A stretch of DNA of 37,481 bases from Clostridia bacterium (GTDB lineage Bacteria; Bacillota; Clostridia; DUPQ01). Both the position numbers and the translations under genes were made by a program. The stretch's first letter is position 1. Every line of letters begins with the position of its first letter. Below the pieces are notes generated by a model that saw only the letters and a program-made list of their open reading frames with translations, was not told the DNA's origin and did no database searches. The stretch spans positions 1 through 37,481 of the forward strand of contig JAQVAJ010000001.1 in assembly GCA_028690885.1 (NCBI GenBank), in the 5' to 3' direction. This document shows, in pieces, positions 17,599 through 37,336 of this stretch.

Positions 17599-17604
17599 GT
17601 AGGC

Positions 17605-17644: not shown

Positions 17645-17658
17645 TTGGAGATAAGCTG

Positions 17659-18132
17659 ATGGCAATGTATGGTGAATTTACACATAGGGTGGATGATAAG
17701 GGCAGAGTGATTCTTCCAGTATCTATGCGTGAAGTTCTCGGAGACAAATTTGTAATTGCTAAAAGTTCTGACAGTACATTGAAAATTCTATACCTTTACA
17801 CAAGAGAAGATTGGGAAAAAATAATTGAAGCTGGTGCAAGAATAGCAGCAAAAGACAGAAGTAAAGCAACATATGTAAGACAACTATCTGCAAGTGGTAA
17901 AGACACTGAACTTGATAGTCAGAACAGGGTACTGATTCCAATTGAATTGAGAAATTACGCAAACATAGGTAAAGAAACAGTTTTATTAGGATTAGGAAAC
18001 AGAGTTGAGATTTGGAATAAGGAATCTTATTACATTAATCATCCTGATGAAACAGAAGTAACTAAAGAAAAAGCTCAAGAAGATGCTGATAAAGTAGCTT
18101 CACTTCTTGAAGAAATAGCACTACTGCAATGA
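17659..18132 (+). CDS. mraZ: Transcriptional regulator MraZ
   Basis: Two SpoVT-AbrB-like half-domains carrying the DxxGR motif (VDDKGRVILP and LDSQNRVLIP). 157 aa. First gene of the dcw cluster. Confidence 0.95.
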   Translation: MAMYGEFTHRVDDKGRVILPVSMREVLGDKFVIAKSSDSTLKILYLYTREDWEKIIEAGARIAAKDRSKATYVRQLSASGKDTELDSQNRVLIPIELRNYANIGKETVLLGLGNRVEIWNKESYYINHPDETEVTKEKAQEDADKVASLLEEIALLQ

Positions 18133-19073: not shown

Positions 19074-19145
19074 AGATATACACTAAAGATAAAGCGTTTA
19101 CGCTAAAACACTCAAGAAATCTTAAAACACTAAAGAAAAGGAAAG

Positions 19146-19177
19146 CCGGTTGTAAAAATTCCCCCTTTTACAACCGG
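19146..19177 (+). other. Strong intergenic hairpin between rsmH and ftsL, without a U-tract
   Basis: Perfect 12-bp arms CCGGTTGTAAAA / TTTTACAACCGG with the 8-nt loop ATTCCCCC. It is followed by a small GGTC-TTT-GACC hairpin, not by a T run. Confidence 0.6.
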
Positions 19178-19201
19178 TAGGTCTTTGACCTTGAATGAAG
19201 A

Positions 19202-19621
19202 ATGGAAATTGAAAGAAGAAATGAAAATAATATAATTGGTAAATTGAAGGCTGTGATACTGCTTATGCTTGTATTCACAGCTTTATTTTTAATAATTTTC
19301 AGATATGGCGAGATGATAAACCTGAATTATGATATTACCAGACTTAATAATGAATTGAGAGAAAAAACGGGTATCAATTCTGCTTTGTATGCTGAATTGG
19401 ATAAACAGGTTACTATTAATGATATCAAGTACACTGCCGAAACTAAACTTGATATGAATAAACCAAGAAATGATCAGATAATATACATAAATACCAAATT
19501 AAGTGATGATTATAATTCACAAGAAAAAGATAACTTCTATACTATGACTTCTTCTGTTTATGAAAGAATAAATCATACCTTTAAAAATATAGTTGAGATA
19601 TTTAAGGGTTCAAATGAGTGA
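19202..19621 (+). CDS. ftsL: Cell division protein FtsL-like (bitopic membrane protein)
   Basis: 139 aa with one TM helix (AVILLMLVFTALFLIIF) followed by a coiled-coil-like stretch. It occupies the conserved slot between rsmH and the class B PBP. The call rests on position and architecture rather than sequence similarity. Confidence 0.6.
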   Translation: MEIERRNENNIIGKLKAVILLMLVFTALFLIIFRYGEMINLNYDITRLNNELREKTGINSALYAELDKQVTINDIKYTAETKLDMNKPRNDQIIYINTKLSDDYNSQEKDNFYTMTSSVYERINHTFKNIVEIFKGSNE

Positions 19622-19657
19622 AAAAATATTGTATGATTCAATAAGCGGTTTAATAAT

Positions 19658-21877: not shown

Positions 21878-21891
21878 CAGAAAGGTAGTAT

Positions 21892-23385
21892 ATGGATATA
21901 CATCAATTATTGTCTAAAACAGATTATATCAAAGCATCTCATTTAAAGGATGTTATAATATCAGGAATTTCATTTGATTCAAGAAAAACAAAAAAAAATG
22001 ATATTTTTGTTGCGATTGATGGGGCAGACGAAGACGGTCACAAATACATAGATAATGCGATTCAAAAGGGAGTTGCTGCTATTGTTATCACAAAGGAATA
22101 TGATTTTTACAGAAGTAAATATCCACAAGTAGCAACTATATTAGTTGAAGATTCAAGAATATTTTTGGCACAGTCATCGGCTTTGTTTTTTGATTATCCA
22201 TCCAAAAATATGAATATCATTGGTATTACAGGTACAAAAGGAAAGTCTACTATTTCTTATATGATTAAAAATATATTTGATAAAGCAGATTTAAAAAGCG
22301 CTGTAATTGGAACTATTGGTATAAGTTACAATAATAAATTAATTGAGACAAATACGACTACACCTTCATCATACGAGCTAAATCAAATTTTTTCCGATAT
22401 AAGAAATGAAAAAATATCTAACTGCATAATGGAGGTTTCATCAATTTCAATGAAGATGAACAGAGTATATGGGTTACATTTTAATATAGGGATGTACACT
22501 AATCTTACACAAGCTCATATAACTCAAAGAGAGCATCCTACATTTGAAGATTACTATAATTCTAAAAAAAAGATTTTTGAAAAAAGTAAAGTAATGTTGG
22601 TAAACATTGATGATGAGAATGTGGAAAAAGCACTTAATGAATATTTAGTTAGTGATCATTATATAAAAACAGATAACAGAATAATATCAATCGGTATAGA
22701 TAAAAAAGCTGATATTATCGCTGAAAATATAGTTTATAAAAATGATAAAAGCAGTTTTACATACAAAGGGCTGAATAAGTGCTTTGATGTCTTGATTGAT
22801 ATACCTGGACGGTTTAATATTTATAACAGTTTATTTGCTATTACAGCAGCATTATTAAATGATGTAGACATAATTCACATACAAAATGGACTTTCTGATG
22901 TTCAAGTAAGAGGAAGATGTGAGAAGGTAGATATTGGTAAAGATTATACTATGATGATTGATTATGCACAAACTCCTGATAGCCTGTTAAAGATTCTACA
23001 GGCAGTAAGAGAAACAAAAACATCAGGAAGGATTATAACTTTATTCGGTTGTGGAGGTGACAGAGATAAATCAATGAGACCAATGATGGGTAAAATTTCA
23101 GGTGAAAATTCTGATTTTACTATAATAACTTCTGACAATTCCAGGACAGAGAAGCCTGAAAAAATTATTAGTATGATTGAAGACGGAATAAAACAGACTA
23201 ATGGTCAATACATATGTATAACTGATAGAACAGAAGCAATTAGATATGCGATGAAGATAGCAAAAAAAGATGACATAGTGATACTCGCCGGTAAAGGAAA
23301 TGAGACATATCTTGATGTTATGGGAGTGAAAACACATTATGATGAAAGGGAAGTTATATTTGGTATTTTGGAAGGAAAAATATGA
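21892..23385 (+). CDS. murE: UDP-N-acetylmuramoyl-L-alanyl-D-glutamate--2,6-diaminopimelate ligase
   Basis: Mur ligase P-loop GITGTKGKST, GCGGDRDKSMRP, and DNSRTE in place of the DNPR motif. The Arg associated with meso-DAP specificity is retained. Confidence 0.92.
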   Translation: MDIHQLLSKTDYIKASHLKDVIISGISFDSRKTKKNDIFVAIDGADEDGHKYIDNAIQKGVAAIVITKEYDFYRSKYPQVATILVEDSRIFLAQSSALFFDYPSKNMNIIGITGTKGKSTISYMIKNIFDKADLKSAVIGTIGISYNNKLIETNTTTPSSYELNQIFSDIRNEKISNCIMEVSSISMKMNRVYGLHFNIGMYTNLTQAHITQREHPTFEDYYNSKKKIFEKSKVMLVNIDDENVEKALNEYLVSDHYIKTDNRIISIGIDKKADIIAENIVYKNDKSSFTYKGLNKCFDVLIDIPGRFNIYNSLFAITAALLNDVDIIHIQNGLSDVQVRGRCEKVDIGKDYTMMIDYAQTPDSLLKILQAVRETKTSGRIITLFGCGGDRDKSMRPMMGKISGENSDFTIITSDNSRTEKPEKIISMIEDGIKQTNGQYICITDRTEAIRYAMKIAKKDDIVILAGKGNETYLDVMGVKTHYDEREVIFGILEGKI

Positions 23386-24734
23386 ATATAAAGTTAAGTT
23401 CTATATATAATATATTTCAAAACTTATTTTGCAAGGATATAGATAAAAACATTACTGGAGTATCTATTGATACAAGAACGCTAAAAGAAAATGATTTATT
23501 CTTCGCAATTAAAGGAGACAATTTCGACGGACATTGTTTTGTTAATAAAGCAATTTCTTTGAATGCTGCAGCAGCTGTTTGTTCTAAAGAAGATAATTAT
23601 AATGGTGATGTAATCTATGTAAATGATACAACAGAAGCGTTACAGGACTTTGCAAGGTATTACAGAAATATGTTTGACATTCCATTTATAAGCATAACAG
23701 GCAGTAATGGTAAAACAACAACTAAAGAATTAATAAATACTGCAATATCTACTGAAATGAAAACCTGCTACACAATAGGTAACTTAAATAATCAGACAGG
23801 CGTTCCTCTGACTTTGTTTTCACTCAATGAAAATACTCAAGCAGCAGTTATAGAAATGGGTATGAATAGTATTGGTGAAATCAGAAAGTTATCATATATA
23901 GTTAAACCCAAAATTGCAGTAATTACAAATATAGGAACCAGTCATATAGGCATGCTTGGTAGTAAAGAGAACATTTTTAAAGCAAAAACGGAGGTTCTTG
24001 ATTATGTTGATAATGGTTATCTTGTAGTTAATGGTGATGATGATTTTCTTTCATCAATCAAAGATTCTGATAATTACAAAGTAATAAAAGTTAGCATTTA
24101 CAATAATGATGCAGATTATATTGCTCAAAATATTGTTCAAAATGAAGATAATACTTATTCATTTACTGTTAATAGTAAAAATATCAATCTTTCAATCCCA
24201 GGATTTCATAATATTTATAATGCCCTATGCGCATTTGCAGTTTCTGATTTACTTAAGGTAAATACTGATAAAGCATCTAAAGCAATAAGTGAATGCAAGA
24301 ATCAGAAAATGAGAACCCAAATAAGTGTTATTAATGGATATACTGTCATTAATGATGCATATAATGCGAATTATGACTCCATGAAAGCATCTTTAGAATT
24401 ATTGGGAAACTACAATAAGCGAAAAGTTGCTATATTAGGAGATATGCTGGAGTTAGGCGATTATGAAAAGTATTTTCATATTAAGGCAGGTGAGATTGTA
24501 ACAGATAACAGTATAGATGTCTTGATTGCTATAGGCAAAAATGCTGATAATTATTATCAAGGAGCTGTAGATTCCGGCATGAGAAGCGCTTGTATTTACA
24601 GGTATGCCAGCATAGAAGAATCAAAAAATACTATTAAAGATATAATACAAAAAGATGATGTAATATTGCTTAAAGGCTCAAGAGGTTCTGCAATGGAAAA
24701 GTTAATGGATATATTTGAAGAGGAGATTATATGA
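23382..24734 (+). CDS. murF: UDP-N-acetylmuramoyl-tripeptide--D-alanyl-D-alanine ligase
   Basis: ITGSNGKTTTKE P-loop, NDAYNANYDSMKASLELL, GDMLELG. ATGA overlap with murE. Confidence 0.93.
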   Translation: MNIKLSSIYNIFQNLFCKDIDKNITGVSIDTRTLKENDLFFAIKGDNFDGHCFVNKAISLNAAAAVCSKEDNYNGDVIYVNDTTEALQDFARYYRNMFDIPFISITGSNGKTTTKELINTAISTEMKTCYTIGNLNNQTGVPLTLFSLNENTQAAVIEMGMNSIGEIRKLSYIVKPKIAVITNIGTSHIGMLGSKENIFKAKTEVLDYVDNGYLVVNGDDDFLSSIKDSDNYKVIKVSIYNNDADYIAQNIVQNEDNTYSFTVNSKNINLSIPGFHNIYNALCAFAVSDLLKVNTDKASKAISECKNQKMRTQISVINGYTVINDAYNANYDSMKASLELLGNYNKRKVAILGDMLELGDYEKYFHIKAGEIVTDNSIDVLIAIGKNADNYYQGAVDSGMRSACIYRYASIEESKNTIKDIIQKDDVILLKGSRGSAMEKLMDIFEEEII

Positions 24735-25684
24735 TAATTGCTGCTATTGTTACTTTTGTATTGACGGTTATATTAGGAATACTTATGCTTCCTGTATTAA
24801 AAAAAATGAAAATTGGTCAAGTTGTTAGAGATGACGGTCCTAAAGAACATCTTAAAAAAACTGGAACTCCTACAATGGGAGGAATTATATTCATCATTCC
24901 AATTTTAGCTTGCACCTTATTTGTCGGATGGAAGGATCCTCTAGTTCTTGCTTCTTGTGCTTTAATTCTAGTATCATCAATAGTAGGCTTTATTGATGAT
25001 TTCTTGAAGATAAGAAAGAAGAATAAAGATGGTCTTAAACCTATATTTAAAACGATATTTTTTATAGTAATATCACTACTGTATGCAATATTTATTGTGT
25101 ATTTTACTGATATCGGTTCAGATATAATAATACCTTTTACAAATACATCAAAGATATTTTATGTTCCTGGATGGATATATGTTATTTTTATAGTTCTGTT
25201 CTACAATGCGGTCATTAATGCAGTTAATTTTACTGATGGAGTTGATGGGTTATGTGCTTCTGTGACTTCTGCAGTCTTTATTTTCTTTGCAGTATCTTCG
25301 CAGATAATTTTTAAAAATGAAAACATGACCTATCTTTCAATTATAGTTATTTTTGCTATGATAGGCTATCTTGTATTTAATGTTCATCCTGCAAAATTAC
25401 TTATGGGTGATACCGGTTCACTAGCTCTAGGAGGAGTAGTCACTGCAATCTCAATCAACCTTAGAATTCCGTGGATTATATTAATTGTCGGCATTATATA
25501 TGTTATAGAAATATTATCTTCTGTAATACAGGTTATGCATTATAAGAGGACAAAAAAAAGGATTTTCTTAATGGCTCCAATTCATCATCATTTTGAGCTT
25601 ATGCACTGGAGCGAGAATAAGATAGTTATTATATTTACAGCAGTAACACTCGCAGGGGGTATACTTGCATTTTTAATGATTTAG
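24731..25684 (+). CDS. mraY: Phospho-N-acetylmuramoyl-pentapeptide transferase
   Basis: KKTGTPTMGG, IDDFLKI, NAVNFTDGVDGL, MGDTGSLALGG and MAPIHHHFEL motifs. ATGA overlap with murF. Confidence 0.96.
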   Translation: MIIAAIVTFVLTVILGILMLPVLKKMKIGQVVRDDGPKEHLKKTGTPTMGGIIFIIPILACTLFVGWKDPLVLASCALILVSSIVGFIDDFLKIRKKNKDGLKPIFKTIFFIVISLLYAIFIVYFTDIGSDIIIPFTNTSKIFYVPGWIYVIFIVLFYNAVINAVNFTDGVDGLCASVTSAVFIFFAVSSQIIFKNENMTYLSIIVIFAMIGYLVFNVHPAKLLMGDTGSLALGGVVTAISINLRIPWIILIVGIIYVIEILSSVIQVMHYKRTKKRIFLMAPIHHHFELMHWSENKIVIIFTAVTLAGGILAFLMI

Positions 25685-25727
25685 AGGAGGAGTATGAACA
25701 GCCACTGACTGCATCATACAAGGGATT

Positions 25728-26846
25728 ATGTTAAGGAGTAATGGCAGAAATAAAACTGATTTTGTAATTTTCTTATTTGCGCTTGGATTGACCGCCTTTG
25801 GTTTATTGATGATTTTCAGCGCTGGTGCTCCTTATGCGAAAAGCAGATTTAACGATATATATTATTTCATAAAAGACCAGATGTTTGCTGCAGTAATTGG
25901 ATTAGTATTAATGCTTATAGCTTCGAGTGTAAGTTATAAATTGTATAGAAAACTCAGCTGGATTATATTTCCAATAGGATTAATACTACTGATTTTAACT
26001 TATATACCTGGTATTGGAGTAGCATACAGTGATGCAAGAAGATGGATAAATATCGGATTTGAGTTCCAACCATCAGAAATATATAAATTAGCTTTTATTG
26101 TTTTTCTCTCAAAAATAATTCTTGATTTTAAGAAACTGGATAAACCATTAATAGGATACTTTGTAACTATGGGTATCACTTTATCATCTGCACTTATAAT
26201 CTTTTTTCAGCCTCACTTAAGTGCTGCAATAATAATCACTTTGGTAGGATTCGTAATTATTTTTATTGGAGGTACAAAAATAAAATATCTCGTTCTTACT
26301 GTATTACCTGTAATCACATTGGCAGTTATTGGTGCATTTACCTATGATTACATGAAAGAAAGGATAATGACTTGGCTGGACCCTTTTGCATATCCTACTG
26401 ATTTAGGATATCAGATAATACAGTCGCTATATGCAATAGGCTCGGGGGGGCTTTTTGGAGTCGGACTCGGTAAGAGCACACAGAAATTTTTATATATTCC
26501 AGAACCGCAAAATGACTTTATATTTGCTATTCTTGCAGAAGAATTAGGATATATTGGTGTATTTTTAGTAATTGCGATGTTTTGTATGTTGTTATGGAGA
26601 GGGATAAGGATAGCAATATATTGTGAAGATATGTTTGGAACACTTCTTGCTACTGGAATTACTTCATTAATCTTTATTCAAGCTGCTCTAAATATCGCTG
26701 TTGTAACGGGCCTGGTTCCGAATACAGGTATTACACTTCCATTTTTCAGTTTTGGAGGAACCAGTCTGGTAATGTTTTTAACGCAAATCGGTATATTGTT
26801 GAATATTTCTAAACAATCTGTAGATAAAAGGGAGTTGAATGTATGA
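25728..26846 (+). CDS. ftsW: SEDS-family protein FtsW/SpoVE (dcw-cluster copy)
   Basis: FQPSEIYKL, QPHLSAA, NDFIFAILAEELGYIG and TLPFFSFGGTS motifs. 372 aa. Position between mraY and murG. Confidence 0.9.
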   Translation: MLRSNGRNKTDFVIFLFALGLTAFGLLMIFSAGAPYAKSRFNDIYYFIKDQMFAAVIGLVLMLIASSVSYKLYRKLSWIIFPIGLILLILTYIPGIGVAYSDARRWINIGFEFQPSEIYKLAFIVFLSKIILDFKKLDKPLIGYFVTMGITLSSALIIFFQPHLSAAIIITLVGFVIIFIGGTKIKYLVLTVLPVITLAVIGAFTYDYMKERIMTWLDPFAYPTDLGYQIIQSLYAIGSGGLFGVGLGKSTQKFLYIPEPQNDFIFAILAEELGYIGVFLVIAMFCMLLWRGIRIAIYCEDMFGTLLATGITSLIFIQAALNIAVVTGLVPNTGITLPFFSFGGTSLVMFLTQIGILLNISKQSVDKRELNV

Positions 26847-27940
26847 AGATTCTGATTGCAGGCGGAGGTTCTGCAGGACATATAAATCCAGCTATATCAA
26901 TTGCAAAGGAGATTGTAAAACACAAACCTGATTCAAAAATTTTATTTATTGGATCACAAAAAGGTCTTGAGAAGGACCTTGTGCCACGAGAAGGCTTTGA
27001 TATTAAATTTATAGAAATTGAAGGGTTTAAAAGACCTCTAACATTTAAATCCATTAAAACAGTTTTTATAATGATAAAAGGATTTTTTCAAGCGAATAAA
27101 ATTGTTCGTGAATTTAAACCTGACATATCCATTGGAACAGGAGGATTTGTATCAGGACCTGCTATTTTTGCAGCATATCTTCATAAATCAAAAATAATGA
27201 TTCATGAACAGAATGCTTATCCAGGTGTAACCAATAGAATGTTAAGCAGATATTCAGATGTAGCAATGACAAGTTATGAGTCAGCTTCAAAATTTTTTAT
27301 CAAATCAAAAAAAACTGTACTTACTGGGAATCTTATTGATGATTGCTTTTCTTCAATGGAAAAGTATAAACCAACAGAAGGTAAAAAGACTATAGTAATA
27401 ATAGGCGGTAGTCAAGGTGCAATGACAATTAATAATGCAGTTATCGGAATGATAAATGATCACATGAATAAGGATGATTTTAATCTAATATTTGCTCCTG
27501 GAAAAAAGTATTTTCAGCAAGTAGTAAGTAAAGTAATAAATAAACTGAACAATGTTATGATTCATGACTATATTTATGAAAGAAATACTATATATGCAAA
27601 AGCTGACTTAATGGTTATTCGTGGTGGTGCAATATCTATAAGCGAGATACTTGCTATGGGTAAACCTGCTATAGTTATACCATCTCCTTATGTACCAGAT
27701 CATGCACAAGAAAAAAATGCACAAATGATTTATAATAATGGAGCTTGTGAGATAATGTATGATAACGAAACCTTAACATCACATGCTTTGTATGAGAAAA
27801 TTTATAGTTTACTTAATAATAATCAAAGACTAATAGAAATATCAAAAAAAGCTTATTCTCTTGGTATACGAGATGCTAATGAAAGGGTATATAAAGAATT
27901 TTTGGAGGTATCTGATGAAATTAACAGTGTTGGGAAATAG
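26843..27940 (+). CDS. murG: Undecaprenyldiphospho-muramoylpentapeptide beta-N-acetylglucosaminyltransferase
   Basis: MKILIAGGGSAGHINPAISIA G-loop, GTGGFVSGP, IIGGSQGA and RGGAISISEILAMGKPAIVIPSP. ATGA overlap with ftsW. Confidence 0.95.
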   Translation: MKILIAGGGSAGHINPAISIAKEIVKHKPDSKILFIGSQKGLEKDLVPREGFDIKFIEIEGFKRPLTFKSIKTVFIMIKGFFQANKIVREFKPDISIGTGGFVSGPAIFAAYLHKSKIMIHEQNAYPGVTNRMLSRYSDVAMTSYESASKFFIKSKKTVLTGNLIDDCFSSMEKYKPTEGKKTIVIIGGSQGAMTINNAVIGMINDHMNKDDFNLIFAPGKKYFQQVVSKVINKLNNVMIHDYIYERNTIYAKADLMVIRGGAISISEILAMGKPAIVIPSPYVPDHAQEKNAQMIYNNGACEIMYDNETLTSHALYEKIYSLLNNNQRLIEISKKAYSLGIRDANERVYKEFLEVSDEINSVGK

Positions 27941-28619
27941 CGGTCCATATCCAAGTGCTGAAAGACCGTGTTCTGGATATGTTGTTGAACTAAACAATAA
28001 GTTAATAATTCTTGATCTTGGAAGTGGAACTCTTATGAACTTTCAGAAAAGTTATAATATCGAAGATATTTCTTTTGTTATCCTATCCCATCTTCATTTT
28101 GACCACATGTCAGATATTCTGGTTTTACGCTATGCATTACAAGTTAAAAAAATGAAAATTGATTTATATTTACCAAAACAGCCCAAAAACATATCTTCAG
28201 TTTTAGCGTGTGATGAGTTTAATTTAATATTCATCAATCAGAACACTAGTATAAAAAGAGATGGATTTGATATTTCTTTTACAAGGACTACACATCCTGT
28301 TGAAACTTATGCAATTAAAGTTAATAATAGATTTGTTTACTCTGCAGATTTATCAGAACCCGATGATTTAGATGAATTTGTATATGGTGCTGATACCTTA
28401 TTAATTGATTCTGCTTTTTTAACAATTCAAAAAGGTAATAAAAAATTATTTCATTTATCTGCAACTGAATGTGCAATGATCGCAAGCAGACACAGGATAA
28501 AGAATTTACTACTTACTCATCTACCTCCTGATGCAAAACAAGCAGTGTATATTGATGAAGCTAAACCTTTTTTTGATAATGTAAGTGTTGTTCAAGTGAT
28601 GCAAAAAATTGATATGTAA
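27915..28619 (+). CDS. MBL-fold metallo-hydrolase
   Basis: HxHxDH motif (SHLHFDHMSD) plus downstream H/D ligands (TTHPVE, LLLTHL). The ORF track starts at 27861. GGAGG at 27904-27908 lies 6 nt before ATG 27915 (MKLTVLGNSGPY), which is the more credible start. The gene still overlaps the murG 3' end by 26 nt. Confidence 0.8.
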   Translation: MKLTVLGNSGPYPSAERPCSGYVVELNNKLIILDLGSGTLMNFQKSYNIEDISFVILSHLHFDHMSDILVLRYALQVKKMKIDLYLPKQPKNISSVLACDEFNLIFINQNTSIKRDGFDISFTRTTHPVETYAIKVNNRFVYSADLSEPDDLDEFVYGADTLLIDSAFLTIQKGNKKLFHLSATECAMIASRHRIKNLLLTHLPPDAKQAVYIDEAKPFFDNVSVVQVMQKIDM

Positions 28620-28711
28620 TTCTAATATTTTATATGGTTTTTATAACAATTCTATTAAAATGCTTTATAATATAAAAAATATGGTCTATTATATTGTCTG
28701 AAGGAAATGAA

Positions 28712-29704
28712 ATGAAAAAGAAAATAGCTTTCTTCTTAACAGTTTTTATATTATTACTTTTATTAACAGGATGTATGTCTTTATTTCCCCAAGAAGATGA
28801 GATGCTCAGCATGCCTGTACCAACATTTGTTCAAGTTGAATACAGAACAATAAAACCTCAAAGAGGTGATATTATAAAAAGGGTTAATGTCTTAGGAACA
28901 GTAGTTGCTGATTATCATGAGTCTATTGATATGAAATTTAATGTTGATGGATATATAAATGAAATATTTGTCGAAAATGAGCAGTATGTTGAGGAAGGCG
29001 AAATAATAGCCACCCTTAAGGAACCGGACAATAAGGAAAAAATTGAACAAGAATATACTGAATCATTGAATAGTTATCTGAATATACAGGAAAATTATTC
29101 TCAAAACAGAGCTACTGAATATGATTTAAGAAAAGCAGAGATAGCATATGAACATGCAAAAGAGAAATATGATGAGCTGCTTTATTATTTAGAATCATTA
29201 CAATTAAAAGCGCTAAAATCAGGATATATAGTTTCATTAAAGGAAATGCAAGAATCCGACCTTATTGGAAAAACACTCACTGTTTGTGCAATAGCAGAAA
29301 AAATTGATAAAATGGTTCAAGCAACAACAACTACTGATAATGTATCAAAATTACCTACAGGTACAGAAGTAACACTTGTGATAAAAGATACTGAATATAA
29401 AGGATATGTATCAAACTCAAGTGGAAACACATTAAGATTTAAATTGTTTGAAGATATGACATTTATGCAAAATGGAGATATTATTGAAGTTTATTTGGTT
29501 CTAGAAACTGCATATGATGTTCTGATGGTTCCTTCAACTGTTATAACATTTACTGAAGATAATAAAGGCGATATAAGAGTTTTGTCTGATGGTGCTCCAG
29601 TAACATATAGTATTACTTTTGGTTTAAGATCGGACACACATGTAGAAATTTTTCCTGACCAGGGTATTACGGAAGATACATTGATTATAACGGGGGTTAG
29701 ATAA
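28712..29704 (+). CDS. Lipoprotein, membrane-fusion (HlyD/MacA-like periplasmic adaptor) protein 1
   Basis: Signal peptide plus lipobox (MKKKIAFFLTVFILLLLLTGC). Lipoyl-like half motifs GYINEIFVENEQYVEEGEIIATL and LKALKSGYIVSL flank a predicted coiled coil. C-terminal VLMVPSTVI ... THVEIFPDQGITEDTLIITG. The ORF track TTG at 28694 has no RBS. GAAGGA at 28700-28705 serves ATG 28712. Confidence 0.75.
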   Translation: MKKKIAFFLTVFILLLLLTGCMSLFPQEDEMLSMPVPTFVQVEYRTIKPQRGDIIKRVNVLGTVVADYHESIDMKFNVDGYINEIFVENEQYVEEGEIIATLKEPDNKEKIEQEYTESLNSYLNIQENYSQNRATEYDLRKAEIAYEHAKEKYDELLYYLESLQLKALKSGYIVSLKEMQESDLIGKTLTVCAIAEKIDKMVQATTTTDNVSKLPTGTEVTLVIKDTEYKGYVSNSSGNTLRFKLFEDMTFMQNGDIIEVYLVLETAYDVLMVPSTVITFTEDNKGDIRVLSDGAPVTYSITFGLRSDTHVEIFPDQGITEDTLIITGVR

Positions 29705-29708
29705 GAGT

Positions 29709-32540
29709 ATGCTACGTCTGATTATTAGAAAAATGTTTAATAACAAATGGATGGTAGCATGTTTGATTATAGGTTGCGCATTTGCCATTGCTGTCGCATC
29801 AGCTATACCAATGTATTCAGCTGGAATTTATGATAATCTTCTAGTAAATGAGTTTAAAAATCAACAGCAAAGGGATAATACATTTCCCTTTAGAATGTGG
29901 TACAATGCCACTTTCTTTGGGCTAGATAATTCATCGTCTAAAGTGAATTTCGATCAATTGGATAATATATTTTATGATGATTATATTAAAAACATGCCTT
30001 TGGATACAGTGTTTGAGTATAAAAACACCACTACAAAAGTATATTCTGTATTTGATCAGCAGAACTACCTTCTTAAACAGCAGGCAATAGAAAAAGGAGA
30101 GACTTTATCTTATAGAAATCTCAATGTTAAAGCAGATTATTCAATAACAGCAGCCGCTAATGGTGAAAATATGGTTGTGATTGAAGCAGGAAGGATATTT
30201 GAGAAGAGTACGGAAGATGATGTGATAGAAGCTGTCATAACGCAGCGATCTGCTGCCTTGTTCAGATTATCAGTAGGAGATTACTATTATCTTTATAACC
30301 GGCCAGTTGATGAACAAGTTGCCGCGAAGATAAAAATTGTAGGTATTGCTAAAGTTAGCGAAGAAGCATCTTCATTCTTTACTCTTTCTGATAAAACATT
30401 CTTAATAAGTTTTGAAAAGATGGAGGAGCTTATATCAAATTCGAAAATTACGCTCCAACAGGCAAATTGGTTTGCAGCATTTGACTATACTAAAATAAGT
30501 ATTCTAGATACCGATTCAATACTAAGCGCTTCTGCTGTACTTAAGCAGGATTTTCAAAATTCAGGATTATTACTTTCTTCATCAAATAATTATGTGGAAT
30601 TAATAAAGACATACGAGAGTAACACCTTGGTAATGCAGAGGATTTTTCTTCTTTTAATAATACCTGTTATATTAATGATAGCTATGTATGTTGTAATGAT
30701 TTCTCAGCTTATGATGGAGAGAGAAAAATCAGAAATAGCTACACTTGAAAGCAGAGGAGCATCAAGAGGACAGATATTTAAAATATATTTTGGACAAGGT
30801 ATTATTCTGTCCTTAATTTCTCTTGTACTGGGAATTCTACTTGCAAGGGGAATATGTCGTTTATTAGGAGCTTCAAATGGGTTTATGGAATTTGTAAACA
30901 GAACCGCAATTGATGCAAAATTCAGTATGACTTCCTTTATTTATGCGCTTATTTGCTGTCTTATTTACATGATTATGATTTTAATACCTGCGTATAAAGC
31001 CTCAAAATATTCAATAGTACAGCATAAGCAAAATATTGCCAATGGTTCAAAAAAATCATTCTGGCAAGTTATTTTTCTAGATTTGATCTTGTTAGCGATC
31101 TCCATTTACTTCTTGTATTCATATAACGAGATTAGTGATTATCTTAAAAATTCAGAACAGTCATTCATTGATTTTACATTATTCATAGCTGTCACATTAT
31201 TTGTAATGGGATTAGGTTTATTGTTTATAAGACTATTTCCTTATCTCATTAAATTTATATTTTTTATTGGAAAAAGATTATGGAGACCTGCATCATATAC
31301 TGCCTTTACTCATGTTGCCAGAGGAGGTAACTATAAGCAGTTTATTATGATTTTCTTGATACTAGCAATTAGTATCGGTATATTTAATGCGAACACCGGT
31401 AGAACCATAAACGATAACATTGAAGACAATATAAGATACAGAATAGGCGCGGATGCATTAGTAATAACTGGAAAAGAGCATTTCGATCCAGTTACAGGCA
31501 CAACAAGGATAATTGAAGATTCGGGTAGAGAACTGGAAATTATGGCTGATAAAATATGCGAATCTGAATATGTTGATAATTATTGTGTTATATATCAAAG
31601 CAATATGGAATTAACACAATCTCAATCACAGATACCAACAGAATTTATAGGAATAAACCCATATACATTCGGTAAAACTACAAGTTTACGCAATGATTTG
31701 AATGGTGGATTCCATCTAAACTATTATCTAAATTTATTATCTACTTATCCACAAGGTGTAATTATTTCGAAAAAGTTAGCCGATGAATATGAAGTAACTC
31801 AAGGAGATTATTTTAATTATGAGTACTCTGCCTTTTCAGAACAGATATTTATGGAAAATATTTTGGTAGTCGGAATAGTTGATTATTGGCCAGGTATAAT
31901 AGGGGATAGTTTCATTGTTTTAACAGAAGATAGTTATATTACAATGAAATATATTTCGATGAGAGGAAAAATTCTTCTTGACAAAAAGGACGGATATCTC
32001 GATAGTATACTGTTGGAAGATTTAAAAACCTATTTAGGTCATGGTGAATATATTTATAGTAGCGCATTTACTGATTACGAGCTGACACTTGAAAAGAAAA
32101 ATTCAATTCTAAACGGCATGAATGGAATATTAACATTAGATTTTCTTATATCCATGATAATCTGCTGCGTAGGATTTATAATTTTCTGGATTATATCTGT
32201 TAGACAAAGAGTCCTTCAATTTGGTATATTCCGTGCTATGGGAATGAAGAAAAGTGAGTTATATAGAATGATTTTCTTTGAGCAGCTTATGGTATCTTTT
32301 GTATCAGTTATAATGGGTATTGTTATAGGAGGGTTGACTACTCAGTTATTCTTACCACTGATAGAAAGACTATTTAAATTAGGTGAACTTGTAGTTCCAT
32401 TTACAGCATATCAAGATGGAATAGATTATATAAGAATTTATGTAATAACAGGGTTATCTTTAATAGTAGGATTATCAGTACTTCTAAGGTTTATATCCAA
32501 ATTGAAGATAGATCAAGCATTGAAGTTAGGGGAGGATTAA
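29709..32540 (+). CDS. Fused MacB/FtsX-type ABC transporter permease (two FtsX repeats, about 10 TM helices, two large extracytoplasmic domains)
   Basis: 943 aa. TM1 is followed by a hydrophilic domain of about 270 aa and then 3 TM helices. Two linker TM helices follow. TM7 is followed by a hydrophilic domain of about 230 aa and then 3 TM helices. This is a 4+2+4 layout like YbbP-type fused FtsX permeases. Confidence 0.85.
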   Translation: MLRLIIRKMFNNKWMVACLIIGCAFAIAVASAIPMYSAGIYDNLLVNEFKNQQQRDNTFPFRMWYNATFFGLDNSSSKVNFDQLDNIFYDDYIKNMPLDTVFEYKNTTTKVYSVFDQQNYLLKQQAIEKGETLSYRNLNVKADYSITAAANGENMVVIEAGRIFEKSTEDDVIEAVITQRSAALFRLSVGDYYYLYNRPVDEQVAAKIKIVGIAKVSEEASSFFTLSDKTFLISFEKMEELISNSKITLQQANWFAAFDYTKISILDTDSILSASAVLKQDFQNSGLLLSSSNNYVELIKTYESNTLVMQRIFLLLIIPVILMIAMYVVMISQLMMEREKSEIATLESRGASRGQIFKIYFGQGIILSLISLVLGILLARGICRLLGASNGFMEFVNRTAIDAKFSMTSFIYALICCLIYMIMILIPAYKASKYSIVQHKQNIANGSKKSFWQVIFLDLILLAISIYFLYSYNEISDYLKNSEQSFIDFTLFIAVTLFVMGLGLLFIRLFPYLIKFIFFIGKRLWRPASYTAFTHVARGGNYKQFIMIFLILAISIGIFNANTGRTINDNIEDNIRYRIGADALVITGKEHFDPVTGTTRIIEDSGRELEIMADKICESEYVDNYCVIYQSNMELTQSQSQIPTEFIGINPYTFGKTTSLRNDLNGGFHLNYYLNLLSTYPQGVIISKKLADEYEVTQGDYFNYEYSAFSEQIFMENILVVGIVDYWPGIIGDSFIVLTEDSYITMKYISMRGKILLDKKDGYLDSILLEDLKTYLGHGEYIYSSAFTDYELTLEKKNSILNGMNGILTLDFLISMIICCVGFIIFWIISVRQRVLQFGIFRAMGMKKSELYRMIFFEQLMVSFVSVIMGIVIGGLTTQLFLPLIERLFKLGELVVPFTAYQDGIDYIRIYVITGLSLIVGLSVLLRFISKLKIDQALKLGED

Positions 32541-32541
32541 T

Positions 32542-33213
32542 ATGTCTGAATTGATAAAAGCAACTAAAATCTGCCGCGACTTCAAACAGGGAAGCAATAT
32601 AATACATGCATTATCTGATGTAAACATTTCAATAAATTCTAAAACGCTAACGATGCTTGCTGGTCGTTCCGGTTCAGGTAAGACTACCTTGATGAATATA
32701 GCAGGTGCACTCGATAGGCCTACTTCAGGAAAAATATATTTCGACAGTATCGATTTAACAGATTTAAGTGAAAGTAAGAAAGATGATATAAGAAGGAAGA
32801 ATATTGGGTTTGTTTTTCAGTCAGTCGCATTAATTTCTGTTTTAAATGCATATGAGAATGTAGAATTCGGTTTAAGAATGGCAGGTGTTAATCCAAAATA
32901 TTGGGACGACTTAGTAAGAGAATCACTTAAATTCGTTGGATTGGAAAAAAGAATGAAGCATAAGCCTCATCAGTTATCAGGCGGAGAACAGCAAAGGGTT
33001 GCTATAGCCAGAGCTATTGTCTCCAGACCAAAACTTATTTTTGCAGATGAACCTACAGCTGAACTGGATACCAAGTCAGGTTTGAAAATTGTAAATCTTT
33101 TCAGACATCTTGTTGATGAAGAAAATATGACAATAGTTATGACAACGCATGATCCGAGCATGATTGAGCTTTCTGATGATGTAATAAAACTGGAAGATGG
33201 GAGGGTTATATGA
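32542..33213 (+). CDS. ABC transporter ATP-binding protein (MacB/LolD-type NBD), copy 1
   Basis: Walker A GRSGSGKTT, Q-loop FVFQS, signature LSGGEQQRVAIARA, Walker B LIFADEPT, H-loop TTHD. GGGGAGGA RBS. Confidence 0.93.
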   Translation: MSELIKATKICRDFKQGSNIIHALSDVNISINSKTLTMLAGRSGSGKTTLMNIAGALDRPTSGKIYFDSIDLTDLSESKKDDIRRKNIGFVFQSVALISVLNAYENVEFGLRMAGVNPKYWDDLVRESLKFVGLEKRMKHKPHQLSGGEQQRVAIARAIVSRPKLIFADEPTAELDTKSGLKIVNLFRHLVDEENMTIVMTTHDPSMIELSDDVIKLEDGRVI

Positions 33214-34241
33214 AAATAGCTGATTTAAAAAGAAAGTTATTAACGATAATTCGTCCAAAAAAGTCAATAACTAGGGACATTACTGCAAAGAATTTTTATG
33301 GTAAGGATGATTCAGAAATACCTGGCTATACACCTGATCATATAATATTTTGTGATGGATTAGTTAAAATATATAAATCCAAAGATACTGAAGTAGTAGC
33401 ATTACAGGGTCTTGAACTGGAAATCAAAAAAGGCGAAATGATGGCTATTATAGGAAATAGTGGAAGTGGAAAGTCTACATTAATGAATTTATTAGGAGGG
33501 TTAGACAGACCATCTGCAGGAATACTAATTGTTGATGGTAAAAACCTTCTACGAATGAGGAAAAATGAAATTTTAGAATATAAAAAAAAGAAGGTAGGCT
33601 TTGTTTGGCAGAATAACGCAAGAAACCTTATACCTTATCTTCCTGCACTCCATAATGTTGAATTACCAATGCTTCTAGCAGGTAAAAAAAATGCAAGAAA
33701 AAAAGCAACAGAACTTCTTGAAATAATGGGGCTTAAGGACCGGATGCATAACCGATTATCACAATTATCAGGAGGTGAGCAGCAAAGAGTAGCAATTGCA
33801 ATTGCTATGGCGAATGATCCGGTTATCTTACTTGCTGACGAACCCACTGGAGCAGTTGATACTGCTACAGCTGAAATTATTTATAATATTTTCAGAAAAC
33901 TCAATAAAGAGTTTGCAGTTACTATAATAATTGTAACTCATGATAGAGCGGTAGCTAAAAATGTTGACAGGGTAGTTACTATAGTTGATGGACGTACTGG
34001 AAGTGAATATATCCGTAAAAAATCATATAAAGAGCAGATACAGGAATTAGACAGAATGTCAGGTGTTGAAGAATCAGAGACACATGAGGAAATGATTGTA
34101 GTTGATAGGCAGGGAAGATTGAAAATTCCAGAAGAGTATCTTGAACTTGCTAATATCCCAAATAACAGCAAAGTCAGGTTAAAAATGCAAGATGACAAGA
34201 TACTGATATATGGCAAGGATGAAAATGAAGAAGATGTTTAA
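33210..34241 (+). CDS. ABC transporter ATP-binding protein, copy 2, with an N-terminal extension of about 45 aa and a C-terminal AbrB/SpoVT-like domain
   Basis: Walker A GNSGSGKST, Q-loop FVWQN, signature LSGGEQQRVAIAIA, Walker B ILLADEPT, H-loop VTHD. The C-terminal IVVDRQGRLKIPEEYLELANIPNNSKVRLKMQDDKILI matches the swapped-hairpin pattern (compare AbrB VDELGRVVIPIELRRTLGI...IYVDDEKIIL). ATGA overlap with copy 1. Confidence 0.9.
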   Translation: MKIADLKRKLLTIIRPKKSITRDITAKNFYGKDDSEIPGYTPDHIIFCDGLVKIYKSKDTEVVALQGLELEIKKGEMMAIIGNSGSGKSTLMNLLGGLDRPSAGILIVDGKNLLRMRKNEILEYKKKKVGFVWQNNARNLIPYLPALHNVELPMLLAGKKNARKKATELLEIMGLKDRMHNRLSQLSGGEQQRVAIAIAMANDPVILLADEPTGAVDTATAEIIYNIFRKLNKEFAVTIIIVTHDRAVAKNVDRVVTIVDGRTGSEYIRKKSYKEQIQELDRMSGVEESETHEEMIVVDRQGRLKIPEEYLELANIPNNSKVRLKMQDDKILIYGKDENEEDV

Positions 34242-35334
34242 AGCGAAAAAAATACTAGTATTATTAATGTTTCTGTTATCAGTATCTGTACTATCTGGAT
34301 GTACATATTTTTATCCTGCTGAGCAAAAAATATACATACCTGAGCTCATTGAACCTGAAAAACCTGATTTACTTATAATCGAAATTCAAAAAGGTGACAT
34401 TGTTAAGGGTTACTTACTTGGTGAGGATGATCAGACTTTTTGTGAATTTGTTAATGATCCAACAAAGACTACATTTGTAAATGCTGACATTGAAGAGGCT
34501 TATGTAAAGCAGATATATGTATCTGAAGGTGATTTTGTTAAAGAAGGAGATATTCTTATTGAGTACGAGTATGAATTTGATAAGGATACTGAATTCCTAT
34601 TAAATATTGATAAAAGAAGAGCAGAATTAAAATATGAAAAAGCAGTAACACAATTAGAACAAGGTAAACTCTCATCAGAAGCTTTGGAACTTTATAGAAA
34701 TGCATACTCAACAGCAACTAGTAAATTAGATGAGTTTTACGCACTTGAGGAAAAATATACATTAAGAGCACCTTGTGACGGTACAATTGTTGAGATTGAA
34801 GGATATTCTGTTTCTTCAAATGACAAACATAATGTTACTTTCCAAATTAGTAACATAGAAGATGGAATCATTATTATTTATGCTGACAGTAACAATGATG
34901 TTGCCGCCTTTCCTTTGTACATTTTTTCTAAAGGTTCAAAAGCAAGAATTTCAAATGAAGAACTCGGAATCGAAGCAAATGCATATGTTAAATACAATAA
35001 CACCGATTTTAAGAAAAACTATGAAGGGTATTTAGATACAATACACGGAAGTAATATGGTTTACATGGAGCTGGAGTTTGAAGAAAGCAGTTTTCCAGAA
35101 TCAATTAATTTCAATCAAACATTTACAGTATCACTTATACAAAAAGAAATTTATGATGTTGTATTAGTACCAAGAAGTGCTGTTGAAGAAACTGCATGGG
35201 ATCAGTATTATGTATATAAGCTAAACGAGAATAATGACTTAGAAAAAGTAATAATTGAAATTGGTGAAAACAATGAAAATTACTACGAGGTTAAAGAGGG
35301 ACTGGAAGAAGGAGATAAGGTGTTAATACGATGA
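34210..35334 (+). CDS. Lipoprotein, membrane-fusion (HlyD/MacA-like) adaptor protein 2
   Basis: Lipobox LSVSVLSGC. Lipoyl-like motifs VKQIYVSEGDFVKEGDILIEY and LRAPCDGTIVEIEG flank a coiled coil. C-terminal VVLVPRSAV ... YYEVKEGLEEGDKVLI. The start is ambiguous among ATGs at 34210, 34219, 34225 and 34234. ATG 34225 is best placed after AAGGA (34215-34219). The gene overlaps the end of ATPase 2. Confidence 0.75.
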   Translation: MARMKMKKMFKAKKILVLLMFLLSVSVLSGCTYFYPAEQKIYIPELIEPEKPDLLIIEIQKGDIVKGYLLGEDDQTFCEFVNDPTKTTFVNADIEEAYVKQIYVSEGDFVKEGDILIEYEYEFDKDTEFLLNIDKRRAELKYEKAVTQLEQGKLSSEALELYRNAYSTATSKLDEFYALEEKYTLRAPCDGTIVEIEGYSVSSNDKHNVTFQISNIEDGIIIIYADSNNDVAAFPLYIFSKGSKARISNEELGIEANAYVKYNNTDFKKNYEGYLDTIHGSNMVYMELEFEESSFPESINFNQTFTVSLIQKEIYDVVLVPRSAVEETAWDQYYVYKLNENNDLEKVIIEIGENNENYYEVKEGLEEGDKVLIR

Positions 35335-36431
35335 GAAATATTAAAATCACAAAAATAATACGAATTTTCATCATATTATTTGCTACATTAATGTTGTCTT
35401 CCTGTGTAAATAAGGTTAAACCATATGATATACCTGTATTTAATATTCGTAATGAGATATATGAAACAGTTGAATTAAAAAAACAGAGTGTTCATGATTT
35501 TGTACAATTTAAACTTGTGCTCGACACTCTTTCTGGAACTAGATTTTCTTTCGATTATTCACAACAGGAGCAATGTGAGATTATTATTGATGAATCAGGC
35601 ATTTATGTAAAAGAAAATGATGTATTAGCTATAAAACACTCTAAAGAATTACAGAATGAGTTAAGGCTTAAAAATGAGAATCTTGAACTTAAGCAGTTAT
35701 ATTATAATCAATTATACGAAAAATATATAAACTCTAGTCAAGGATATATTGATGTTCTGCTTGCAGAACTGGATGTTCAAGAAGCAGAATATTCTGTTGA
35801 AAAAACTTTAGATAAAATCGAAGACCTTAAGGTTAGAGCACCAAAGGATGGTGTAATTGAAAAGGTTGTTGAAACATACACAAATGTGACCGATGAATTT
35901 GGGAATGTCAGCAAAGTATTTACTGTTACTTACACATATGAGATTGATAATTATGTTATGAGATTGAATATTAACAATCAAGATGCAGTAACAAGTATTC
36001 TCAACAGAATATGGGAAGGCGAATATCCAATTATTCAGATATATGATGTTAATGGAGTATATTATGATACAAAAGTAAAGGATGTTTCTGTTTCTGGTTT
36101 TTATAATTACAGAACAGCAAGTTACGACAGAGCACTAACTGTGCTGCTAGAGTTTGTAAAACAAGAAGGAGTTGATTATTCATCAGTAGTAAGGTATGCA
36201 CTTTATTATGACCAGATACTAAAAGAACTTGATGATGCAATTGTAATTAATACAGATTGTGTGTATGGCGGGACAGATGATTTAAAATATGTGTATATTC
36301 TTGTTGATGGAAAAAAGATGACTAGATATGTAACTTTGGGAAATGAAGTATATAATTCAACGTCAGTAATTGTACTCGATGGATTATCTGAAGGAGACTT
36401 GCTGATAACAGATATTACACTTGAGCAGTAG
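35331..36431 (+). CDS. Lipoprotein, membrane-fusion (HlyD/MacA-like) adaptor protein 3
   Basis: Lipobox ATLMLSSC. Motifs GIYVKENDVLAI and LKVRAPKDGVIEKVV flank a coiled coil (ELRLKNENLELKQLYYNQLYEKY). C-terminal VTLGNEVYNSTSVIVLDGLSEGDLLIT. ATGA overlap with adaptor 2. Confidence 0.7.
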   Translation: MRNIKITKIIRIFIILFATLMLSSCVNKVKPYDIPVFNIRNEIYETVELKKQSVHDFVQFKLVLDTLSGTRFSFDYSQQEQCEIIIDESGIYVKENDVLAIKHSKELQNELRLKNENLELKQLYYNQLYEKYINSSQGYIDVLLAELDVQEAEYSVEKTLDKIEDLKVRAPKDGVIEKVVETYTNVTDEFGNVSKVFTVTYTYEIDNYVMRLNINNQDAVTSILNRIWEGEYPIIQIYDVNGVYYDTKVKDVSVSGFYNYRTASYDRALTVLLEFVKQEGVDYSSVVRYALYYDQILKELDDAIVINTDCVYGGTDDLKYVYILVDGKKMTRYVTLGNEVYNSTSVIVLDGLSEGDLLITDITLEQ

Positions 36432-36433
36432 AG

Positions 36434-37336
36434 TTACTCCAAAGACATGCAAAAGTCAATAATCGTTTCTTCGTCTTCGTATAAATAGTCGGGAACTATT
36501 CCTATAGAATGTATCGAGTTCTGATTAGGTGTGAGTACTAAAAATGTTGTTGCTTTAACATGAAATCCATTTTTTATGCTATATGTAGTCTGACCAATAC
36601 CTTTACCGAAAGATTTAACACCTACAGTAATTACATTATTAAGATTTTCCTTAAGTGCATTAATAAATATTTCTGAAGCAGAGGCAGTATTATTATTTTG
36701 AAGGATAATAATTTTCTGAAAATCTAATATTTTATTAGATTTGACAATAGCAGGTTCCAGTTTGTCTCTGTATTTAATTATATATGAAATATCATCAGGA
36801 TTAAGAAAATATGAGGATAATTCATATGCCTCATCAAGACCACCTCCTGTATTGTCTCTTAAGTCAATAATAATTCTGCTGTAGTCATTAATTGTTTTTA
36901 CAGATTTTTTGAAAATATCCATGCTTTCATCGGAGAAATTCGTATATTTAAGAAGTATCGCATTTTCATTTAATAATTCAGTATGTGTCATATTAGCTTT
37001 TTCAGAACGATTTTCAATATATGAACTATACTGAGATGGAGTATACTGATAGGTATAAGGATCATTTCCTGTAGTTTTTATTTTTTCAGAAATAAGACTG
37101 ATAGCAATATTATCAAAATACTTGTAGTATTCTTTTTCAGATTTTATATCTACTGATAATGTATCTTTATACATTTTGTCTAAAGTATCAGTAAATATGT
37201 AGTCCTTGCTAATAAAAAACTTGAAGAATATGTAGTCATAGTTCATCCATATTACACTAGCCATAGCAATGACAATAATACACAATCCTATTACTATTCC
37301 TATTAATATATTATTCTTTAACTGATACTTTTTCAT
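36434..37336 (-). CDS. Membrane-anchored S41-family serine peptidase (C-terminal-processing-protease-like, apparently without a PDZ domain)
   Basis: N-terminal TM helix (ILIGIVIGLCIIVIAMASVIW). S41 motifs IIDLRDNTGGG, NNTASASEIFINAL (Ser nucleophile region) and KSFGKGIGQT (Lys region). Only 300 aa. RBS AAGAGG lies upstream on the minus strand. Confidence 0.85.
   Translation of the reverse strand: MKKYQLKNNILIGIVIGLCIIVIAMASVIWMNYDYIFFKFFISKDYIFTDTLDKMYKDTLSVDIKSEKEYYKYFDNIAISLISEKIKTTGNDPYTYQYTPSQYSSYIENRSEKANMTHTELLNENAILLKYTNFSDESMDIFKKSVKTINDYSRIIIDLRDNTGGGLDEAYELSSYFLNPDDISYIIKYRDKLEPAIVKSNKILDFQKIIILQNNNTASASEIFINALKENLNNVITVGVKSFGKGIGQTTYSIKNGFHVKATTFLVLTPNQNSIHSIGIVPDYLYEDEETIIDFCMSLE

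Follow-up and report, generated by a model that had tools for sequence, protein, structure and literature searches.

What kind of machine is encoded by an operon with one ABC permease, two different ATPases and three different adaptors? The question is raised by a 37,481-nucleotide stretch of Clostridia bacterium DNA (contig JAQVAJ010000001.1; this whole analysed stretch is called the window below), in which six consecutive genes on the forward strand at positions 28694–36431 encode, in this order, an adaptor, a permease of the ATP-binding cassette (ABC) type, two nucleotide-binding domain (NBD) ATPases and two further adaptors (A1-P-N1-N2-A2-A3). An earlier note, made from the DNA sequence alone, had described a MacB-type operon of six genes here, and six same-strand open reading frames (ORFs) are indeed found at these positions. 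We find that the two ATPases both carry intact catalytic motifs and probably work as an obligate heterodimer, and that the six genes represent a lineage-specific expansion of a four-gene core, adaptor-permease-NBD1-NBD2, whose family is common and unstudied. The six genes are a real operon, and on balance we consider it probable that they encode one multi-subunit machine of the type VII (MacB/FtsX-fold) class in a monoderm Clostridium-class bacterium. Its parts, including the transmembrane (TM) helices predicted for the permease, are as follows.

28694–29704, + strand: ORF of A1 (adaptor 1), 336 aa, opening at TTG 28694; the likely gene is 28712–29704, from ATG 28712
29709–32540, + strand: P (permease), 943 aa, fused type VII (FtsX x2) with 10 TM helices
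32542–33213, + strand: N1 (NBD1), 223 aa, canonical MacB/LolD/DevA-type ABC ATPase
33210–34241, + strand: N2 (NBD2), 343 aa, ABC ATPase with a ~45-aa N-terminal extension and an extra C-terminal domain
34083–34223, + strand: SpoVT/AbrB/MazE-like swapped-hairpin domain at the C-terminus of N2 (aa ~292–338)
34210–35334, + strand: ORF of A2 (adaptor 2), 374 aa, lipobox LSGC; 34225–35334 if read from ATG 34225
35331–36431, + strand: A3 (adaptor 3), 366 aa, lipobox LSSC

Both ATPases match Pfam ABC_tran (N1, 1.1e-31; N2, 4.8e-31) and they share 38% identity. Walker A, the LSGGE motif, the D-E pair of Walker B and the H-loop are present in N1 and in N2, and these motifs are at least 95% conserved across 52 orthologues of N1 and 45 of N2, which rules out the suspicion that one of the two is a degenerate pseudogene and upholds the first reading of two non-identical, catalytically intact NBDs. 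The best NCBIfam matches, all below cut-off, are DevA and LolD for N1 and LolD and MacB for N2, with the FtsE model also among the best; the LolD equivalog gives 199 and 224 bits for the two NBDs against a cut-off of 307.75. Matches among PDB sequences include LolD, MacB, YbbA and BceA, and the core of an AlphaFold2 (AF2) model of N2 (pLDDT 77.5) is matched by Foldseek to MacB, YbbA, LolD and Spr0694, with a TM-score normalised to the target of ~0.9 to the NBDs of MacB, LolD and YbbA. N1 and N2 are thus ATPases of the MacB/LolD/DevA/FtsE class and neither site is degenerate. Residues 1–45 of N2 (33210–33345) form an N-terminal extension found in the window's clade and shorter or absent in more distant orthologues; in the AF2 model it is a short helix followed by low-confidence coil.

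The permease carries both halves of an FtsX-type transporter in one chain, since Pfam FtsX matches it in two stretches (8.9e-21). The fusion of two FtsX halves stands as first described. Hydropathy gives ten hydrophobic segments, not eight, arranged 4+2+4, and two large extracytoplasmic domains lie at about aa 34–311 and 564–812. An AF2 model built on 16 homologues (pLDDT 78.5, pTM 0.65) reproduces the 4+2+4 layout with extracytoplasmic domains of mixed alpha/beta structure; together, hydropathy and model place one domain between TM1 and TM2–4 and the other between TM7 and TM8–10. Because the profile of P matches PDB sequences weakly (LolF/LolC best, at 1e-7 and over the TM helices only; PsdB and MacB also weak) and does not match YbbP among them, comparison of folds was needed. 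In a Foldseek search of the PDB with the model, the best match is E. coli YbbP (9ge7_A, E 4e-23, 995 aligned columns), followed by BceB, LolE, MacB, Spr0695, HrtB and YtrF; among the matches listed, type VII permeases continue to rank 42, after which come weaker matches to AcrB-type resistance-nodulation-division (RND) chains. P falls below the cut-off of every curated NCBIfam model, scoring 39.5 bits against 622.3 for ADOP (TIGR03434), 34 against 966 for MacB, 26.6 against 362 for lolCE and 12.9 against 999 for YbbP (NF041854). The topology is thus of the YbbP/BceB-type with 10 TM helices, while at the sequence level P is remote from all solved structures. The assignment of the locus to the MacB/FtsX class made in the earlier note is borne out by the two FtsX matches, the two ABC_tran matches and the fold comparisons.

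The two halves of P differ at their coupling helices, each of which is conserved (EIA...SRGAS in one half and LQFGI.RAMG in the other). In ATPases of this kind the coupling helix fits into a groove formed by the residues that follow the Q-loop, and this stretch is conserved as GF.FQS.ALI..M.AYENVEF in the alignment of N1 orthologues and as GF.WQNNARNLIPYL.A..NVE.PM in that of N2, the second groove differing from the first. Gene order was surveyed by calling ORFs in 88 sources (87 loci and the window; ~82 non-redundant loci) and classifying them by phmmer against the six window proteins. N1 followed by N2 lies adjacent to the permease gene, in any form, at 45 loci and directly downstream of it at 44. 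Wherever NBD genes are linked, the order N1-N2 is fixed, and one NBD stands alone only where the contig ends. The two ATPases also occur as single fused chains, both in the order N1-N2(AbrB) (P0130 and P0131) and in the reverse order, N2(AbrB)-linker-N1 (P0145 and P0165), the latter from a compositionally different, apparently high-GC lineage. Loci L088 and L090 show fused ATPases, and the permease context of the reverse-order fusions is cut by the contig end. The P0131 fusion lies immediately downstream of a permease gene, and read-through where the two genes overlap might account for its junction; the reverse-order fusions, with their long linker, cannot be explained in this way. Co-occurrence, fusion in both orders and the distinct conserved coupling helices and Q-loop grooves support an obligate N1-N2 heterodimer, the asymmetric motor that had been proposed from the two competent NBDs.

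The C-terminal extension of N2, of ~80 aa, has no counterpart among solved relatives. All 45 N2 orthologues conserve its motif HEE..V.D..GRL.IP..Y, after which comes a strand pattern of alternating hydrophobic residues; 28 of them are matched by Pfam MazE_antitoxin (PF04014, SpoVT/AbrB family; best 8.6e-7) and 19 by MraZ; the tail of the window's own N2 reaches 20 bits against the MraZ cut-off of 23 (6.9e-4). A profile of the tail matches the AbrB N-terminal domain structures 2k1n and 1z0r at 4e-4, with the alignment VDxxGRxxIP...kixl, and AF2 predicts a disordered linker (aa 265–293) and then a beta-beta-alpha-beta-beta unit (pLDDT ~80), so that sequence match and predicted topology are both those of a SpoVT/AbrB/MazE domain. 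None of the solved NBDs matched by Foldseek extends over this part of N2: matches to type VII NBDs span at most ~260 aligned columns, and only MetN, whose C-terminal domain is unrelated, aligned further (up to 293 columns). N2 therefore carries a conserved C-terminal SpoVT/AbrB/MazE-type domain that is absent from every solved type VII ATPase, and full-text literature searches gave no description of an AbrB-bearing ABC ATPase. The domain is the only regulator-like element in the operon; its role may lie in regulating the motor, in bringing two complexes together or in binding DNA. No regulator gene, histidine kinase, response regulator or peptide-precursor gene was found in the 37-kb window, in keeping with the first impression that neither a substrate gene nor a regulator is visible, but the AbrB-like domain on N2 had been missed.

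All three adaptors have a signal peptide and a lipobox (A1 LTGC, A2 LSGC, A3 LSSC) whose Cys is invariant in the orthologue alignments of each, and their pairwise identity is 21–26%. Pfam places A1 just under the cut-off for HlyD_D23 (5.1e-7, 29.6 bits against 30) and A2 just over that for Biotin_lipoyl_2 (29.9 bits against 29.8), and has no match for A3. Among NCBIfam models, RND_mfp matches A2 at 1.6e-18 and A3 at 4.3e-8, A1 has RND_mfp and MacA matches below threshold, and the MacA equivalog gives 32 bits against a cut-off of 342. With Pfam mostly sub-threshold, orthologue profiles were used, and these settled the identity of the adaptors. All three pairs are aligned over their full length by hhalign at 99.9–100% probability (A1 at 100% to both A2 and A3), and the A3 profile matches MacA structures over profile positions 41–329 (4dk1, 5.5e-19; 5nik_D, 2.5e-13) as well as chain 6vej_P of the TriA-TriB fusion 6vej. 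Aligned with MacA, A3 shows the lipoyl, alpha-hairpin, beta-barrel and membrane-proximal regions of a membrane-fusion protein (MFP), and homologues of the adaptors carry Pfam YknX_C and BSH_YknX matches. The hairpin between the lipoyl half-motifs measures 65 aa in A1, 68 aa in A2 and ~68 aa in A3, the last counted from the hhalign alignment. A1, A2 and A3 can thus be identified from their profiles as membrane-fusion adaptors and full-length homologues of one another, A3 being the most divergent and matching MacA. The description of three mutually divergent adaptor lipoproteins, each with its own lipobox, holds on the evidence of the profiles, although of the three only A2 is accepted by a Pfam model.

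At the junctions between the genes, gaps of 4 nt (A1/P) and 1 nt (P/N1) and ATGA overlaps at 33210 (N1/N2) and 35331 (A2/A3) were all found as the earlier note had them, except that the N2/A2 junction is an overlap and not a gap. It measures 32 nt if A2 starts from ATG 34210, 17 nt from ATG 34225, which is preceded by AAGGA, and 8 nt from ATG 34234. The ORF coordinates given for A1 are likewise right, but TTG 28694 merely opens the ORF, and ATG 28712, preceded by GAAGGAA, is the likely start of the gene. Because the spacing is tight and genes overlap, translational coupling is suggested. One expression signal may lie in the 74-nt gap upstream.

28643–28671, + strand: candidate sigma-70-type promoter (ATAACA, 17 nt, TATAAT; 10/12 consensus matches)

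This promoter is a suggestion only, as the consensus scan finds no more sites than in shuffled sequence; a scan for terminators likewise stays at the level of shuffled sequence.

The architecture is not the isolated oddity that it had seemed. P and its relatives, proteins of about 930–1000 aa, make up a discrete family of 716 clusters at 50% identity (E <= 1e-30) among 1.84 billion representatives, and at least 508 are found among GTDB species representatives. Nearly all come from Clostridia (Ruminococcus, Oscillospiraceae, Christensenellales, Hungateiclostridiaceae, Caldicoprobacter and many metagenome-assembled genomes), and the family is common in Clostridia of the gut, the rumen and digesters. 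Four members (L035, L041, L070 and L072) come from bins that bear the label of a diderm group, Spirochaetes or Spirochaetia; these could reflect horizontal transfer or mis-binning. Database labels for the genes are generic ('FtsX-like permease family protein', 'ABC-type lipoprotein export system ATPase subunit').

The plain order A-P-N1-N2 is complete at 23 of the surveyed loci and cut by the contig end at a further 7, and the cultured Ruminiclostridium herbifermentans has the same four-gene core (CP061336.1, around 531.5–537.2 kb). An adaptor and a permease with no NBD gene nearby make up 25 complete loci, of Ruminococcus and Faeciplasma types, and 4 cut by the contig end; no ATPase gene lies within 10 kb in Ruminococcus albus (L001/L002), L007, L036 and ~20 other loci from Ruminococcus, Faeciplasma and Oscillospiraceae. 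Two or more extra downstream adaptors are found at 10 loci, the window included, and 3 of these have an eight-gene form, A-P-N1-N2-A-A-P-A. In L005 (14618–18708), L015 and L019 this form adds a second fused permease of ~1000 aa and a fourth adaptor; the second permease is a paralogue, 33% identical to the first, and there is still one N1/N2 pair. The six-gene form is common to close relatives, with permeases 52–66% identical, and to a sister clade at 37–39%, so the extra adaptors have been kept over substantial divergence. The six-gene order thus recurs in relatives of this operon, as the expanded form of a widespread family with a core of four genes.

How might such a machine work? The single 10-TM, YbbP-like fused permease would provide both FtsX halves and, with them, two different cytoplasmic coupling helices, on each of which a different ATPase would dock, so that NBD1 and NBD2 would form an obligate heterodimer in which both ATP sites are active. 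Closure of the NBDs by ATP would be transmitted through long TM stalk helices and would reshape the two non-equivalent extracytoplasmic domains, a mechanotransmission comparable to that of MacB, LolCDE and YbbAP. The three lipid-anchored adaptors would build a sheath or channel over these domains, most plausibly as a mixed oligomer, a reading favoured by their alpha-hairpins of equal length and by tightly coupled translation. An amphiphilic molecule from the outer leaflet or the wall space could be pushed off the membrane via this sheath, and the AbrB-like tail of NBD2 would serve as a regulatory or oligomerisation module on the cytoplasmic side. Since the MFP adaptors are complete, they argue for a conduit-forming pump or extractor over an FtsEX-type signal transmitter.

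A more specific version of this scheme is put forward tentatively, as possible but doubtful in its entirety. The operon would then represent an undescribed class of type VII system, asymmetric at every level: two active ATPases, obligately paired as a heterodimer, would power a permease that is fused and pseudo-twofold, and the AbrB-type domain would couple transport to gene regulation or pair two complexes. On our reading of the MacA6-MacB2 geometry, a twofold transporter ringed by six adaptors offers them three symmetry-distinct positions, and each of the three paralogues would take one of these to form a 2:2:2 hetero-hexamer.

Several observations weigh against one dedicated machine of this kind. 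At the 25 loci that have only an adaptor and a permease, NBDs can be supplied in trans, and the eight-gene relatives, with two permeases for each N1/N2 pair, suggest that a single operon may give rise to more than one complex. AbrB-type domains normally act as dimers, yet a heterodimeric motor would carry only one copy. Finally, clustering of 786 flanking ORFs revealed no substrate, immunity, precursor or dedicated regulator gene conserved beside the family, and efflux, envelope-building export and signalling are therefore inseparable on the evidence of gene neighbours.

The neighbours of the operon in the window are as follows.

16355–28000, + strand: division and cell-wall (dcw) cluster, mraZ-mraW-(139-aa ORF)-PBP-murE-murF-mraY-ftsW-murG, ending there
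27861–28619, + strand: metallo-beta-lactamase (MBL)-fold hydrolase, likely start ATG 27915, directly after murG and overlapping its end
36434–37336, - strand: Peptidase_S41 gene, convergent with the operon and 2 nt away

Upstream of the operon lie, accordingly, mraZ, mraW, a PASTA-containing penicillin-binding protein (PBP), murE, murF, mraY, ftsW/spoVE, murG and the MBL-fold hydrolase, and before the dcw genes are glycogen, oxaloacetate-decarboxylase, gdh and pheST genes. The 139-aa ORF has no Pfam match and is possibly ftsL; no ftsQ, ftsA or ftsZ follows murG in the window, and a second gene of the SEDS (RodA/FtsW) family stands immediately before mraZ. The best NCBIfam match of the MBL-fold hydrolase is a model for phosphodiesterases that degrade cyclic nucleotides (118.9 bits, far under its cut-off of 400), and its homologues give weak Pfam Anti-Pycsar_Apyc1 matches; it neighbours the operon in 7 loci, conserved beside murG. 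The S41 peptidase is short (300 aa), with an N-terminal hydrophobic segment and no PDZ domain detected. Its gene accompanies the operon in a 64%-identical relative and is absent beside the 37% and 33% relatives examined, and we rejected it as a partner of the family since it was seen only with the closest relative inspected. The gene murG adjoins the operon in 9 of ~82 loci, from more than one subclade (the window, L003, L005, L009, L011, L019, L029, L039 and L048), an OmpR-type regulator and a HisKA/HAMP kinase do so in 11, mostly of Ruminococcus type, and the remaining neighbours are unrelated housekeeping genes (enolase, GH26, BioY). All of these lineage-bound neighbours, from murG and the MBL hydrolase to OmpR/HisKA, enolase, GH26 and BioY, were rejected as evidence of function. 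For the dcw and S41 neighbours, common descent of closely related genomes is a better explanation than a functional connection, which leaves the envelope mechanotransmission role once drawn from this adjacency poorly founded.

Among the alternatives, the one that survives best accepts an exporter or extractor and assigns it to envelope biogenesis rather than to detoxification: a lipid, a glycolipid, a lipid-linked wall precursor or a lipoprotein would be taken from the outer leaflet and handed outward, as LolCDE does with lipoproteins, DevBCA with heterocyst glycolipids and YbbAP-TesA in lipid extraction. We regard this as a possibility, albeit one well short of probable. It draws on the closest fold, YbbP, being described as an extractor of hydrophobic compounds (PMC12646458), on DevA and LolD as the best NCBIfam matches of the NBDs, on LolF and LolC as the best PDB sequence matches of the permease profile, and on the position of the operon after murG in those 9 loci. 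Each of these NCBIfam matches is, however, far below its family cut-off, most loci lack murG and have other, unrelated neighbours, and no esterase, LolA-like or glycolipid-synthesis gene is linked.

It is improbable, in our estimation, that the two ATPases act separately, each as a homodimer powering the permease or permeases under different conditions, with the three adaptors as alternative homo-oligomeric partners that confer three specificities. Such an arrangement would suit the eight-gene relatives, where two permeases and four adaptors share the same two NBD genes, and the Ruminococcus-type loci, where the permease is encoded away from NBDs; an N2 homodimer would moreover supply the partner copy for the AbrB-like domain. 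It is contradicted by the single-permease loci, in which N1 and N2 always occur together in fixed order, by their covalent fusion in both orders in other lineages, by the two coupling helices, each conserved in its own right, and the two different NBD grooves, also conserved, that match them, and by ATGA overlaps that suggest equimolar co-translation. An FtsEX-like mechanotransmitter that moves no substrate and spends ATP on turning an extracellular enzyme on or off (for example a cell-wall hydrolase or the S41 peptidase encoded next to it) in time with wall synthesis is likewise unlikely: pure mechanotransmitters such as FtsEX do exist among type VII systems, and the operon directly follows dcw genes and converges with the S41 gene, in a layout shared with the 64%-identical relative, but full MFP adaptors that align with MacA typify conduit-forming pumps and not FtsEX, coiled-coil activators of hydrolases (EnvC, PcsB or CwlO-like) are absent, the S41 gene does not adjoin in the 37% and 33% relatives, and the dcw link is confined to the 9 loci noted above.

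The preferred reading, one machine with a heterodimeric motor, would have consequences beyond this locus. To our knowledge, the type VII ABC systems with solved structures (MacAB, LolCDE, FtsEX, YbbAP, BceAB, HrtBA and YtrEF) all use one ATPase species, and we found no paper in the searchable literature on a two-ATPase FtsX system or on the combination of parts seen here. Two different active ATPases on a fused permease, if both are required, would offer a natural system for studying how the work of mechanotransmission is shared between ATP sites and extracytoplasmic domains, and the co-encoding of several adaptors in a monoderm is relevant to the role of adaptors in cells that lack an outer membrane. 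The AbrB-like tail is of a type new among the accessory domains of ABC motors.

How, then, does the system relate to those already described? YbbAP(-TesA) of E. coli (PDB 9GE6–9GE8) likewise has a single fused 10-TM permease, the best structural match to the model of P, and NBDs of the same MacB/LolD/YbbA class as N1 and N2. YbbP has two Porter/Sabre-type extracytoplasmic domains, after TM1 and TM7, and binds two copies of YbbA and one periplasmic esterase, TesA, in a 2:1:1 complex (PMC12646458). By contrast, the family described here uses two ATPase species together with between one and four MFP adaptors, with no esterase gene in the operon, and its sequence similarity is negligible (12.9 bits against 999 for the YbbP model and no match of the profile to YbbP). 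BceAB of Firmicutes, the second-ranked structural match, likewise has a 10-TM fused permease of FtsX type, but BceB has a single extracytoplasmic domain (TM7-8), and it works with a BceA homodimer, no adaptor and the BceRS two-component system (PMC12646458); here there are two such domains and adaptors, and no two-component system in the window. MacAB-TolC, Spr0693-0694-0695 of S. pneumoniae and YknWXYZ of Bacillus share the type VII permease fold and a membrane-fusion adaptor, but these pair two identical 4-TM half-permeases and use a single kind of ATPase and a single kind of adaptor, as opposed to a fused permease with two extra TM helices, two ATPase species and three adaptor paralogues. 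LolCDE, with LolF and LolC the best sequence-level PDB matches of the P profile, is also an asymmetric type VII machine, with the asymmetry reversed: two permease subunits are served by one ATPase species (a LolD homodimer) and no MFP adaptors, while here one fused permease is served by two ATPases. The model for the ADOP duplicated-permease subfamily (TIGR03434) is not passed by P. For the adaptors, a parallel is TriABC-OpmH of Pseudomonas (PDB 6VEJ), an RND transporter of a diderm with two adaptors and an outer-membrane channel, in which TriA and TriB co-assemble and so set a precedent for non-identical MFP paralogues in one pump. The earlier note had allowed that the locus might belong to a named, characterised family; since each of YbbAP, MacAB/YknXYZ, BceAB, LolCDE and ADOP differs from it in at least one defining feature tested, it is not a member of any of these, and it combines a YbbP-like permease, MacA-like adaptors, a motor of two ATPase species and an accessory AbrB-type domain.

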